From Eledone cirrhosa (lineage: Eukaryota), in NCBI GenBank assembly GCA_964016885.1, contig OZ024741.1, positions 396,676,001 through 396,740,000 of the forward strand: a stretch of DNA of 64,000 nt, written 5' to 3'. Under the pieces are notes generated by a model that searched no databases, was not told where the DNA came from, and saw nothing but the letters and a program-made list of their open reading frames with translations. Positions 55,418 to 64,000 of this stretch are shown in pieces (positions within the stretch are counted from its first letter, which is position 1; each line of letters begins with the position of its first letter). The translations under genes were made by a program, and so were the position numbers.

Positions 55418-56914
55418 CAATATTTACGAATGGTTGTAACTGTAGAATCAAAAGAAGTTGCCCATTAAAGGGAAATTGTCTTATTAATAACATAGTCTAT
55501 AAATGTGTAATTAGTACTAAGGACTCCACTCAATCCTATATAGGAGCGACGTCTAACCAATTTAAAGTAAGATTTAATGCCCACAAACATAGTTTTAAAA
55601 ATGCCGCATTAGCTAATACAACCTCTTTGGCTGAAGCAATTAATAATTATAGAAAGAGGGATATTCATTACAACCTGACCTGGAGCGTGCTCAAAATAGC
55701 AGATATGAGTGTAGGTTATGCTCCCAAGAACTATTTGAAATCATGAAATCTAATGATATCCTATTAAATAAGCGACAGGAGTTAATTATATCATGCAATC
55801 ATAGAATTAGAAAAACCTTCAAATATTATAAACTTAATTAGTATATACCCCACTCTTATATTTTACAAATCATTATGATTAATTTAAAAAAAATTTTTTA
55901 ATTTAGTTAACCTATAATTAGAAATTTACTACAGAGAATTTCATAATTTTATTTACATCTTAAAAGTTATCTTTAACCTCACTACTTCTTTTAACCGCAT
56001 CCCCTATTTATCACACTTAATACCTAGGATTATTAAATATAATTAATATCTTTAATATTATGGATGTTTAGATAGATACACTGCTTTTTATAAAATTTTA
56101 TCTATTTCAGTTTTTCTATATATATTTTTTATTTTTTAATTTTTTAACTTCTTTATGTATTACTTTCATAAGAATGAATATAATTTTAACTCTGTAAGTA
56201 TACCTTTCAATTAATTTAATTTCCTTTTATGTATCTAGGTTCCTTGAAATTTAAATAAGATTAGTATTTCTCACTAACACCCTCATCCCACAAATTTCTT
56301 TCCCTTCGCTTTTAATAGCATTTTTTAATAACATCAAATTTTTGGGGACTCCTTCACTATCTCCTTGATTTGACTTCATTTTAACCCCTATTTTTCTCTT
56401 CCTCATCATATTCTTTTCATTCAAAGCATAAATTTACATTCCTCCACTCCTAGCATCAAGTTCTACTACTGTTATTCTATCAACTTGACCTCTAACTCTT
56501 TTCTATTGGTCAATTCAAAACCTGTTCCCAAACAGACCTTATATATTAAAACTTTGTTTCTTTCAATAAACATACTTCATCATTTCTGAAGATGGCATGT
56601 ATAGGTGAAGGTAAGTATATCTCCTCTGATAATTTGTAATATTTTTTTTACATAGATCTTTAACATGATATACATACCAACACACATATATATATCTCAG
56701 AAACGATCGTAAAATGATGAATTTTTCAATATAAGGAACCTGTTCTTTGTTTTTATTTTATTGTTTTTATTAATTTATCTTGACACTGTTTTCCTGTGAT
56801 TTTTATCGTTAATTTTTGAATGCATTTTCTCTTTTCATGATAACTTCTATATTTGGATTACATTGAGTTCTTCATATGGATTGACACTACCATTTATTTT
56901 GGTAGATTTATCTA
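55418..56914 (+). mobile_element. 5'-truncated Penelope-like element: GIY-YIG endonuclease remnant plus 3' pLTR region
   Basis: [24 protein letters not shown]...[20 protein letters not shown]...W, a frameshift near 55705, then [11 protein letters not shown]...LLNKRQELIISCNH ending at TAG 55839-55841. The Cys-rich GIY-YIG pattern recalls Naiad-type PLEs. Hammerhead downstream; (TA)n on both sides. Confidence 0.85.
56576..56721 (+). ncRNA. Type I hammerhead ribozyme with long stem II
   Basis: TTCATCATTT-CTGAAGA-(107 nt)-GAAA-CGATCG-TA-AAATGATGAA: perfect 10-bp stem I, palindromic stem III, GUA site. Confidence 0.75.
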
Positions 56915-57765
56915 CATATATATACATATATATATATATATATATATACATATATATATATATATATACATATATATATATATATATATATATATATACA
57001 CATATATATATATATATACATATATACATATATATATATATATATATATATATATACATATATATATATATATACATATACATATATATATATACATATA
57101 CATATATATATATATACATATATATATATGTATATGTACATACACACTTCCGGGTAGTATTCAATGTCGTTTCTCGAAACGTAACAGCCTCCTGTATTGA
57201 ACTAAAGAACATCAGACTATGATTCTCTAACTGGATTGTCAAACGCTCAATATCGAATTGTCATGGATTATGTGAGAGGCATATAATCTGAAAAATACAC
57301 TCCCCTGACTATGAAAATGTCGAAGTACATGAAGTCCATAACATCCCTTCGCTGTGCATTTCCAATACTTTTAATATTTTTAATGCTTGCACTATTTTTA
57401 ATGCTTATATCATTTCTCCACACACAGACTATAACAATCATATAAAGAATTTGCCACCAGATCAACCAACCTAACACTCTTGTTTACCTACCTAAGTCCT
57501 TCTACTACACGTAACTCTCTGCCACACTATATAAACAAGACGCACGTGCTTGCCACACATATAACATTTGCACTATATAACCGCTTATTTTCATGTTGTA
57601 TTTTAACCTGTATTTTTGATTGTACCTTTTAATATGAATGTAAACTCTAAGTGTGTACTGACACTCTAAATGCTGTAATGAATGTTGACCCACAATATTT
57701 GCATATGTATCTGTATGTCTCTTGGGTGAAAAGGAGGTCATATAACTGTTCATTCATTAATAAAT

Positions 57766-57812
57766 TGCTCCGAAGAATCCAAACCTCGGTTTGGAGCAAA
57801 CAGTTGTAAGCA
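57766..57812 (+). ncRNA. Degenerate type I hammerhead ribozyme
   Basis: TGCT-CCGAAGA-A-TCCAAACC TC GGTTTGGA-GCAAA-CAGTTG-TA-AGCA: all three stems present but both core boxes altered. Confidence 0.5.
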
Positions 57813-58673
57813 CAAAAATGTTTTGAACAGTTCTTTGATTCTTATATTTCATATATATACATATATATACATATATATATATACATATATATATATATAT
57901 ATATATATATATATATATATACATATACATATATATATATACATATATATATATATATATACATATATATATATATATATATATATATATATATATACAT
58001 ATATATATATATACATATATATATATATATACATATATATATATACATATATATATATATACATATATATATATATATACATATATATATATATATATAC
58101 ATATATATATATACATATATATATATATACATATATATATATACATATATATATATATACATATATATATATACATATATATATATACATATATATATAT
58201 ATATATATATATATACATATATATATATACATATATATATATATATATATACATATATATATATACATATATATATATATATATATACATATATATATAT
58301 ATATATATACATATATATATATATATATATACATATATATATATATACATATATATATATATATATATATGTATATACATATATATATATGTATATACAT
58401 ATATATATATATATATATATATATATATATCTACATATCCATATATATATATATATATATCTACATATCCATATATATATATATATATATCTACATATCC
58501 ATATATATATATATATATATATATATATATATATATATATATATATATATATATATATATATATATATATACATATATATATATACATATATATATATAT
58601 ACATATATATATATATATACATATATATATATATATATATATATATATATATATATATATAGACATATATATA

Positions 58674-60963: not shown

Positions 60964-61515
60964 ATATATATATATATATATACATATATATATATATATA
61001 TATATATATAGATATAGATATATATATATATATATATATATATATATATATATATATATATATACATATATATATATATATATATACATATATATATATA
61101 CACATATATATATATATATATATATATATACATATATATATATATATATATACATATATATATATACATATATACATATATATATATATATATATACATA
61201 TATATATATACACATATATATATATACATATATATATATATATATATATATATATATACATATATATACATATATATATATATATATATATACATATATA
61301 TATACATATATATATATACACATATATACATATATATATATATATATATACATATATATATATATATACATATATATATATATATATACATATATATATA
61401 TACATATATATATATATATACATATATATATATATATACATATATATATATATATACATATAGATATATACATATATATATATATATATATACATATATA
61501 TACATATATATATAT

Positions 61516-61905
61516 AAAATATTAAAAAAATAATGAATAAAACAATGAAACAGTTCCTTATATTAAACAAAAAAAGTTCATTATTTAACGATCGTTTCTA
61601 GGATATATATGTGTTAGAATTGGCATGCATATTCAACAGATCTATGTACAAAATTATACAAAATTATACAAACTATCAAAATTAAATATACATACCAAAC
61701 ACATATATATGCCGTCTTCAGAAATAATGAAATATATTTATTGATAATAACAACAATTCAAAATTTCAGGTCCGTTTGGGAACAGAGTTCAAATTGACCA
61801 ATGAAAATACAAAAAATTTTATGCAGTTAGGTGTGTGTATATACATGTAATTAACTTCGTACACATATTTACACACTACCGTAAACTCTTGGTAGATTTA
61901 TCTAC
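61516..61905 (-). mobile_element. pLTR-like element, copy 2 (942-bp offset, nearly identical)
   Basis: Matches 60574-60963 except near the right end (TTTAACTAC vs TTTATCTAC). Confidence 0.8.
61577..61731 (-). ncRNA. Type I hammerhead ribozyme with long stem II (copy 2 of tandem pair)
   Basis: Same sequence as 60635-60789. Confidence 0.75.
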
Positions 61906-63214
61906 ATATATATATATATATATACATATATATATATATATATATATATATATATATATATATATATATATATATATATATATATATATATATATATATA
62001 TATATATATATATATATATATATATATATATACATATATATATATATATATATATACATATATATATATACATATATATATATATATATATATATATATA
62101 CATATATATATATATAGATATACATATATATATATACATATATACATATATATATATATATATATACATATATATATATACACATATATATATATACATA
62201 TATATATATATATATATATATATATACATATATATACATATATATATATATATACATATATATACATATATATATATATATATATATACATATATATATA
62301 CATATATATATATACACATATATACATATATATATATATACATATATATATACATATATATATATATACACATATATACATATATATATACATATATATA
62401 TATACACATATATATATATATATATATATATACACACATATATATATATACATATATATATATATATATATACACATATATATACATATATATATATACA
62501 CACATATATATATATATATATATATATATATATATATATACACATATATATATACATATATATATATACACATATATATATATATATATATATACACACA
62601 TATATATATATACATATATATATATATACATATATATATATACACATATATATATATATACATATATATATATATATATATACATATATATATATATATA
62701 TACATATATATATATATATATATATATATATATATATATATATATATATACATATATTTATATATATATATATACATATATATATAGCGGCGATGAATTA
62801 GTTTTGCGAAGTTTTTTATATGAAATCGTGTGTCGAAACAGATATTAATTCTGGCAATATTACGCAAATATGACCCTCCCCAAATATAACCATATATATA
62901 TATATATACATATATATATATATATATATGTATATATATATATACATATATATATATATATATACATGTATATATATATATATATATATACATATATATA
63001 TACATGTATATATATATATATACATATATATATATACATGTATATATATATATACATATATATATATATACATGTATATATATATATATATATATATATA
63101 CATATATATATACATGTATATATATATATACATATATATATATATACGTGTATATATATATATATATACATATATATATACATATATATACATATATATA
63201 TACATATATACATA

Positions 63215-64000
63215 TATGGTCTCCGTTTATTTTTGGGATTCGAAACCGATCGGTAAAGGTAACTATAGTAGGTAAAGTCAATTTTTTAAAATTTATTTTG
63301 AAACTTTTTCATTATTTGCTAAACCTTGTTTATATATGTTCTGGCTCGTTAATTTATTAACCTGCCATTGAACCACATTGGCATTTGGTTGGACAATACA
63401 TGCGTCCCTTAGCGCCTTGTGCGTGAAGGAACACATATCCTATTATTACTACTCTCCTCTATTGTTGAGAGACAAATTGGGTCGTTCCGACTGCTGCTAG
63501 TGATAGTTGCGGCCGGTTTGACCTACCTCCCTCTGCCTCTATCTTTACTTCGGCCCTTGAAAAAATTGATTCCACTTCATTCACTCTCATCTCAGGAACA
63601 GTTTTGGATAGCGCTAGTTCGTAATTTAAATTCAAGAATTTTATATTCTTCGAATGAAAAGAACCTTCTGACGAGAATCTTTCTTTGCAACGAAGGCCGT
63701 ATGGTCTCCGTTTATTTTTGGGATTCGAAACCGATCGGTAAAGGTAACTATAGTAGGTAAAGTCAATTTTTTAAAATTTATTTTGAAACTTTTTCATTAT
63801 TTGCTAAACCTTGTTTATATATGTTCTGGCTCGTTAATTTATTAACCTGCCATTGAACCACATTGGCATTTGGTTGGACAATACATGCGTCCCTTAGCGC
63901 CTTGTGCGTGAAGGAACACATATCCTATTATTACTACTCTCCTCTATTGTTGAGAGACAAATTGGGTCGTTCCGACTGCTGCTAGTGATAGTTGCGGCCG
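63215..64000 (+). mobile_element. 485-bp tandem repeat with one hammerhead per unit (retrozyme/pLTR-like); runs off the window
   Basis: 63215-63515 equals 63700-64000; the first unit starts inside hammerhead stem II at a (TA)n junction. Confidence 0.85.
63663..63745 (+). ncRNA. Type I hammerhead ribozyme
   Basis: ACCTT-CTGACGA-GAATCTT...GGGATTC-GAAA-CCGATCGG-TA-AAGGT; intact core, palindromic ACCGATCGGT stem III, predicted cut after 63740. Confidence 0.9.

Follow-up and report, generated by a model that had tools for sequence, protein, structure and literature searches.

Coding Penelope-like elements and non-coding hammerhead retrozymes in a (TA)n tract of the Eledone cirrhosa genome

The window considered here, the whole 64,000-nt stretch of DNA that was analysed (G000:C2:396,676,001-396,740,000), comes from the 3.0-Gb genome of Eledone cirrhosa. 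Its last 8.6 kb hold a series of islands embedded in impure (TA)n tracts, several of which carry type I hammerhead ribozyme motifs (Table 1). The islands are assigned below to Penelope-like elements (PLEs) of the Hydra clade (families A, A′ and B) and to short non-coding retrozymes (families C and D). They are probably intronic to a minus-strand mucin/vWF-like gene, with a TIL-domain exon at 53930-54217 (E = 1.3e-10) and, approximately 6 kb past the window, a cysteine-rich exon, which we take to resemble a C8 domain.

Table 1. Features of the island region, in window coordinates (PLE, Penelope-like element; UTR, untranslated region; LTR, long terminal repeat).
Feature	Position	Strand	Remarks
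Family A, 5′-truncated coding Hydra-clade PLE copy (endonuclease remnant, 3′ UTR, pseudo-LTR, tail)	55420..56915	+	Distal 3′ end in (TA)n
GIY-YIG endonuclease remnant with CxCx5C linker, broken near C-terminus	55420..55746	+	Pfam GIY-YIG weakly, E = 0.015
Family A type I hammerhead, 10-bp stem I, 107-nt extended stem-loop II, palindromic stem III	56576..56721	+
Family B, 3′ UTR and pseudo-LTR stub of second coding Hydra-clade PLE	57147..57855	+	Stops at proximal 3′ end
Family B hammerhead, U4C core variant, G-to-C in GAAA in window copy	57766..57812	+
Impure (TA)n between islands	57856..63214	.	Insertion target
Family C retrozyme (465-bp unit), long arm of head-to-head insertion, 1.06 units	58674..59164	-	3′ end ~+224 after cleavage site
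Family C type I hammerhead, canonical size	58891..58935	-	Weak Rfam HH9 match
Family C short opposed arm, 0.51 unit	59164..59398	+	3′ end ~+298
Family A′, inverted stub of young coding sister of A	60575..60963	-	Pseudo-LTR (minus) ends at proximal 3′ end
A′ hammerhead, 116-nt stem-loop II, GUU triplet	60635..60789	-
Tail of A′, ~30 nt	60931..60963	+	Opposed part of A′ stub 60575..60963
Local duplicate of A′ stub, 942-bp period	61517..61905	-	Hammerhead 61577-61731
Family F, tiny inverted stub of another (TA)n-inserting family, reduced to its two 3′ ends	62787..62893	.
Family D retrozyme (485-bp unit), 2.25-unit array, 5′-truncated inside stem-loop II	63215..64000	+	Extends 307 bp beyond window to +82 end in (TA)n
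3′ half of D hammerhead (half motif), left by 5′ truncation	63242..63260	+
TT-bulged hairpin directly behind D major 3′ end (+82)	63338..63373	+	Second copy 63823-63858
Short TT-bulged hairpin behind D minor 3′ end (+191)	63453..63470	+	Second copy 63938-63955
Complete D hammerhead, 5-bp stem I, 52-nt stem-loop II, 10-nt stem III palindrome	63663..63745	+	Predicted cleavage after 63740

Hammerhead motifs

A preliminary description of this DNA, made from its sequence alone, had placed six hammerheads and a half motif in the islands, and all were recovered at the same positions and on the same strands. Each of the six has a palindromic or near-palindromic stem III, one follows a GIY-YIG remnant, and the half motif is the 3′ half of a hammerhead standing alone in the last island. 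Applied to the islands without their microsatellite DNA (4,601 nt), a strict type I descriptor found five motifs, versus none in 300 dinucleotide shuffles; the sixth, at 57766, has a G-to-C change in its GAAA core, and GAAA is kept in 28 of its 29 best-match relatives. At the gathering score, Rfam returned no match in the window, and among 150 of the 238 matches at E ≤ 10 the sole hammerhead was a family C match to HH9 (58876-58946; 34.2 bits against a cut-off of 52; E = 1.2e-5).

Hammerheads in PLE pseudo-LTRs, together with circular templates, were proposed in 2014. The motifs described here resemble the earlier-described type I hammerhead with a short palindromic stem III, for which action as a dimer and circular templates for copies of more than unit length have been proposed, but families A, A′ and D differ from it in carrying very long stem-loop II insertions (stem-loop II of 52-116 nt), which the Rfam hammerhead models missed. 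The long stem-loop II of A (56611-56701) and of A′ has a donor-like GT(A/G)-type site and an AG end exactly at the GAAA core and, by analogy with Penelope of Drosophila virilis, might hold a 5′ UTR intron.

The preliminary description distinguished four unrelated sequence types, a count that has to be revised. The motifs at 56576 and at 60635/61577 are 74% identical over 298 nt and belong to the sister families A and A′. The A′ copies at 60575 and 61517 differ at one of 386 positions and have the same inversion junction, indicating one insertion that was duplicated locally. The window motifs represent five insertions, from three unrelated lineages plus one sister pair, rather than six of four types. 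Among genomic copies, cores were not significantly better conserved than flanks (A, 1.7% versus 3.1%, p = 0.17; B, 0.86% versus 0.99%, p = 0.60); one of the outcomes that the preliminary description had listed against itself was thus partly observed, but it is expected if copies decay after insertion. Between sister families, hammerhead cores are retained and stems carry compensatory changes (misplaced or reversed rows of these alignments, 1/4 and 2/6, were ignored). At least eight further hammerhead sequence types were seen in the flanks of the fetched loci (L001-L206), implying many more such families in the genome.

Coding Hydra-clade families

Families A, A′ and B are assigned to the Hydra clade of PLEs from protein motifs and a by-eye match to the published Hydra alignment, Pfam support for the reverse transcriptase (RT) and endonuclease (EN) being weak; a Neptune assignment was dropped on the same motif diagnostics and alignment. 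Relatives of the endonuclease remnant of family A have long RT-EN frames, and A frames reach 594 aa. Family A′ has an intact open reading frame (ORF) of 813 aa, with RT plus, at its C-terminus, a GIY-YIG endonuclease, lying between two hammerhead-bearing pseudo-LTRs (locus L201), and is young, all 40 scored copies rounding to 100% identity. Family B continues upstream into a 677-aa RT-EN frame that is 41% identical to the A′ protein. Protein P0001 carries the RWR, DKT, CxCx5C, CxxC and CxH motifs, P0002, from a frame without the N-terminus, carries the three C-terminal ones, and RWR and DKT of family B were found in locus L161; CxxC and CxH are placed around the conserved E and N. A homologue search yielded 52 relatives, and a PDB search gave only a weak retron RT match (E = 0.006).

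In Craig et al. (2021, PMC8557442), the Hydra clade, including the Octopus member Hydra-1_Obim, targets (TA)n and carries hammerheads. The relevant passages describe features shared by the Eledone families: a single ORF with RT and C-terminal GIY-YIG, the motifs RW[KR], DKT, CxCx5C, CxxC and CxH, a pseudo-LTR hammerhead, a (TA)n target, partial tandems, and inverted 5′-truncated copies with the tail at one end only. In contrast, tails here measure ~135 nt (A, A′) and ~170 nt (B) versus 30-40 bp, stem-loop II extends to ~100-116 nt, the 3′ region of A′ reaches 3.7 kb, ~1.4 kb of it microsatellite, versus whole elements of <3 kb, and the hairpin found behind the ends (see below) is not described in those passages. 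In the A′ copies (L201, G000:C1:114845400-114852900; L195-L206), the microsatellite is of (TA)n type and sits at conserved places of the 3′ region, so that A′ would spread its own target sites; some A′ copies also contain other repeats (family E, further A′ stubs).

The preliminary description regarded all islands as non-coding, self-cleaving elements moved in trans by one neighbouring (TA)n-targeting PLE. Of this, the multi-copy nature of the families, their strong targeting of (TA)n and a link to PLEs are supported, and an ORF check of the window agrees with it in so far as only island A shows any ORF, with C and D non-coding. Copies elsewhere, however, show A′ and B extending upstream into RT-EN ORFs of their own, and A is continuous with its own, to which the adjoining GIY-YIG remnant belongs. 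For C and D no coding partner was found in the sampled loci. Belonging to ORF-bearing elements, A, A′ and B lack the two hallmarks of retrozymes, absence of coding capacity and a short tandem unit, and their attachment to their own ORFs indicates copying in cis rather than as non-coding passengers. The flanks moreover hold several distinct Hydra-like families rather than a single partner, so that adjacency suggests a common target rather than a partnership. An all-non-coding origin is refuted for A, A′ and B and, for the region as a whole, can hardly be maintained; movement in trans remains the most likely course for C and D.

Non-coding retrozymes C and D

Judged from sequence, C and D are non-coding tandem retrozymes with predicted self-cleavage. 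Their units (465 bp in C, 485 bp in D), each with one type I hammerhead, form dispersed multi-copy tandem arrays on many chromosomes without LTR-type structure, and no coding frame was recognised in their window islands. In 73 of 78 C hammerhead stretches the core and stem III are either intact or altered only downstream. Circular folds of the monomer gave z = -9.2 for C and -3.7 for D versus 40 shuffles (antisense, -6.7 and -3.4). A search of sequencing runs listed none of RNA; the contigs examined contain family D and many variants of it.

The targeting of (TA)n is strict. Genome-wide, 1,822 exact junctions of one 3′ end with (TA)n were counted for C and 311 for D, and hence at least this many insertions, versus none for reversed controls. 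In the best-match sets of 32 D and 38 C loci, which favour young, long copies, (TA)n follows 45/45 D and 60/67 C arm ends. TA-type runs are also found on the 5′ side in 18 of 19 single-arm (non-inverted) D loci, with a tract polarity that is not fixed relative to the element, indicating that the tract existed before insertion.

By BLAST, neither C nor D is similar to A, A′, B or a third Hydra family, H, which together represent part of the PLE families of the genome. Among 40 D and 40 C loci taken in order of position, none visibly enters a Hydra ORF and 14 have Hydra fragments nearby; a few 5′ neighbours (L279, L309, L310, L351) are without an assignment. A single C array (L212:830-960; G000:C1:404.30 Mb) is joined without TA to the 3′ UTR of H, and since 24 other H copies go on with their own UTR (one interrupted early), this is a one-off junction that may stem from a template switch or a deletion. 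A ~430-bp retrozyme, family G, ~68% identical to C, was noticed in the fetched loci (L052:1-720, L155:5860-6840, L123:2290-2830, L205:4250-5000), with the same two homologous ends as C and hammerhead stems that have changed but still pair.

Metazoan non-LTR retrozymes (Cervera and de la Pena 2020, PMC7229834; 10.64898/2026.07.22.740005) are similar in that the relevant passages describe non-coding tandem units of a few hundred bases, GC below 50%, one type I hammerhead per unit, a highly self-paired predicted circle and coexistence with PLEs. Mobilisation by PLEs and rolling-circle copying have been proposed there (Discussion of PMC7229834, 2020; Li, Clavereau and Pollet 2026, 10.64898/2026.07.22.740005), the preprint arguing for PLE mobilisation from phylogeny and reporting pseudo-LTR homology for 24 of 57 Xenopus families. 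In those passages the case is built on co-occurrence, pseudo-LTR similarity and RNA detection, without maps of insertion ends, whereas C and D have no BLAST similarity to the pseudo-LTRs tested yet show a PLE end footprint and strict (TA)n targeting. Conversely, cleavage and circles were demonstrated in that work, whereas C and D are known here as genomic sequence.

Two 3′ ends and opposed arms

In all families the 3′ ends adjoin (TA)n and lie downstream of the hammerhead cleavage site, not at it, and the 5′ ends are scattered. Each family has two such ends, located after the cleavage site at +62-69 and +198-203 in A, +70 and +204 in A′, +41-59 and +208-213 in B, +221-245 and +295-302 in C, and +81-84 and +188-194 in D; the spacing in A, A′ and B, ~135-170 nt, corresponds to the tail already known from PLEs, and the ends of all three run into TA-type repeats in best-match loci. 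The 5′ ends of C and D are spread across the unit, with 2/45 (D) and 1/68 (C) within 5 nt of the cleavage site, which argues against linear ribozyme-cut monomers as the usual template. Insertions of D starting at the cleavage site were considered and rejected on these counts, the start at 63215 being an ordinary 5′ truncation.

Head-to-head insertions are frequent, with 13 D and 29 C loci in the best-match sets. Single-arm C insertions use either end (5/9 and 4/9), while 24 of the 29 inverted C loci have one arm per end and none has the same end twice (three use another site, one is complex and one is without a clear end). Single-arm D insertions nearly all stop at +81-84 (18 of 19); 10 of the 13 inverted loci have one end per arm, two combine +82 with another site, and +81-84 twice was found in 0/13. 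When position-ordered loci were anchored on one end, the second arm lay at the other site in 25 of 27 resolved C loci (two of them a duplicated pair) and in 13 of 14 D loci. In the coding family A′, the tail is present on one member of an opposed pair and absent from the other in 5/5 cases, two loci holding extra copies.

The two arms of a locus share their haplotype, with 0/74 mismatches within D loci versus 218/966 between loci (permutation p = 1e-4) and 9/168 versus 952/4829 for C. As a non-coding RNA has no cis preference, such sharing suggests a single template molecule or a single source.

These ends also bear on whether C and D are satellites spread at the DNA level, by unequal exchange, circular DNA or Helitron-like rolling circles, with (TA)n merely a site of survival or a product. 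Tandem organisation and the higher-order repeats of some arrays would fit such an origin; fixed 3′ ends with variable 5′ ends, the two-end and inversion geometry seen likewise in coding PLEs, the dispersal over many chromosomes and the TA-type runs on the 5′ side of D loci, without fixed polarity, do not, and spread at the DNA level is considered very improbable.

A hairpin behind the ends

A hairpin starts 5-8 nt behind all five coding ends for which sequence is available (both ends of A′ and of B, and the proximal end of A). Its outer stem has 4 bp (NYTC paired with GRRN) and is followed by a TT bulge and an inner stem. The D unit has exactly two such hairpins, at +83 and +198, each behind one end and none elsewhere; their bases differ but pair, and the longer accompanies the major end. 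What D shares with the coding elements is thus structural and not sequence similarity. As the hairpin lies beyond the point where copying starts, the distal one would have to be supplied by the next tandem unit or by a circle.

Mechanism and template

The region is best read, with a probability of roughly 0.75, as a (TA)n tract in which truncated copies of two kinds of element have accumulated, those of the coding Hydra-clade PLE families A, A′ and B and those of the non-coding tandem retrozymes C and D, the latter most likely written in by borrowed PLE enzymes. By analogy with Poseidon PAc of Anolis (Frangieh et al. 2024, PMC11167929), a PLE protein would cut both strands of (TA)n, and both DNA ends would prime reverse transcription, at two internal sites on one RNA. 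In the relevant passages of that study, both target strands are likewise cut and extended at AT-rich DNA, and reverse transcription starts at two internal RNA sites that correspond to genomic tail ends downstream of the hammerhead. Poseidon differs in belonging to another clade and in start sites that are not homologous to the target, whereas the ends here overlap short TA-like stretches; templates used in trans and one end per arm are not described in those passages. In A, A′, B and D the sites are likely set by the TT-bulged hairpin 5-12 nt further 3′, so that a Hydra RT would recognise D in trans.

The template of C and D is a weaker part of this scheme, in which it would be a hammerhead-cut, ligated monomeric circle copied round several times. 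D arrays are homogeneous, with locus-private variants shared by all units and both arms, and young insertions reach ~20 units in C and 12 units in D with intact ends. Private variants present in all units of a C array are A>G in 8/17 cases versus 15/158 of single-unit variants (p = 3e-4), a pattern that editing of one repeatedly copied RNA would give.

A competing explanation retains the same PLE enzymes and target but has C and D copied from long, uncut read-through transcripts of existing arrays, with a dispensable hammerhead and arrays that grow later by local duplication. In keeping with it, the anole PLE in vitro used mainly uncut RNA as its substrate (PMC11167929), some arrays have mixed units or higher-order repeats of four and five units, and the absence of a 5′-end pile-up at the cleavage site is as compatible with uncut multimers as with circles. 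However, arrays can only become shorter by linear copying with 5′ truncation, which leaves the longest arrays with intact ends unexplained; single-unit variants lack the A>G strand bias that all-unit C variants have; and C and its relative G have retained the core despite altered stems. Copying from long transcripts is accordingly rated as fairly unlikely, though the strongest of the competing explanations.

Several observations weigh against the scheme of borrowed enzymes and circular templates. In C, the A>G excess has p = 0.065 when tested against T>C, 4/8 of the A>G variants come from one locus, and D has three A>G and seven T>C. A pure monomeric circle also fails to account for those C arrays that are heterogeneous or contain higher-order repeats of 4 and 5 units, and for one D array in which one unit is of a different haplotype. 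Periods of five units (L207) and four units (L208-L209) were seen inside single C insertions and may reflect multimeric circles or local duplication. The work on Poseidon in vitro proceeded without need of ribozyme cleavage, and in the relevant part of the Xenopus study eight of nine retrozyme dimers did not cleave (10.64898/2026.07.22.740005). No coding element sharing C or D sequence was present in the sampled loci, and the best-match sets are biased as stated above. One D locus has +82 on both arms and another has +191 on both. The hairpin occurs behind 0/4 ends of C and G, so that C has the same PLE footprint without the signal. Finally, the hairpin background of ~1% per window overstates the strength of the association, as the descriptor was drawn up with these sequences in view and loosened, to one inner pair, so as to accept the second site of D.

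A more specific model is put forward tentatively, with the odds somewhat against it. Hydra RTs would choose their two start sites by the hairpin 3′ of each, D would be a 485-nt ribozyme-made circle that keeps only the hairpin pair, and one enzyme dimer would copy this circle repeatedly from both ends of a (TA)n break, each DNA end using a different hairpin.

Neighbouring sequences

Beside the islands, two further families were noticed. Family E (54575-54985) is a ~610-bp repeat, common in the fetched flanks, one end of which is fixed in (TA)n; no hammerhead or terminal inverted repeat was noticed in it. In the family F stub the two 3′ ends are ~60 nt apart, and longer copies have a hammerhead-like core ~200 nt upstream that is absent here. 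A direct-repeat search of the window was dominated by (TA)n. Very long tandem arrays occupy 1600-31600 and 42107-52796 (periods of 50, 83 and 133 bp, ACC, 26 bp and 61 bp), which, near the TIL-domain exon, suggests a giant mucin-like gene.

Implications

Families A, A′, B, C and D belong to known kinds of element, and retrozymes as PLE passengers have already been proposed in print. A literature search, which covered neither bioRxiv supplements nor Repbase, where the families may be catalogued, returned no paper on cephalopod retrozymes or on retrozyme insertion ends, and the word ‘ribozyme’ does not occur in the relevant passages of an Octopus vulgaris repeat paper. On the questions of which enzyme moves animal retrozymes, whether the template is circular and how PLE RTs choose internal start sites, the corresponding passages of the retrozyme and PLE papers offer proposals that are not demonstrated from insertion sites. 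To these questions the locus adds two more retrozyme families and, in D and C, a positive and negative pair. It thereby offers a test set composed of A′, young and with an intact ORF, D, a passenger with two mapped start sites and a candidate signal, and C, a control without the signal. If the model of hairpin-guided copying of a circle is true, a telomerase-related RT would have a start signal that is portable and does not depend on sequence, and rolling-circle retrotransposition would be proven directly from genomic data.

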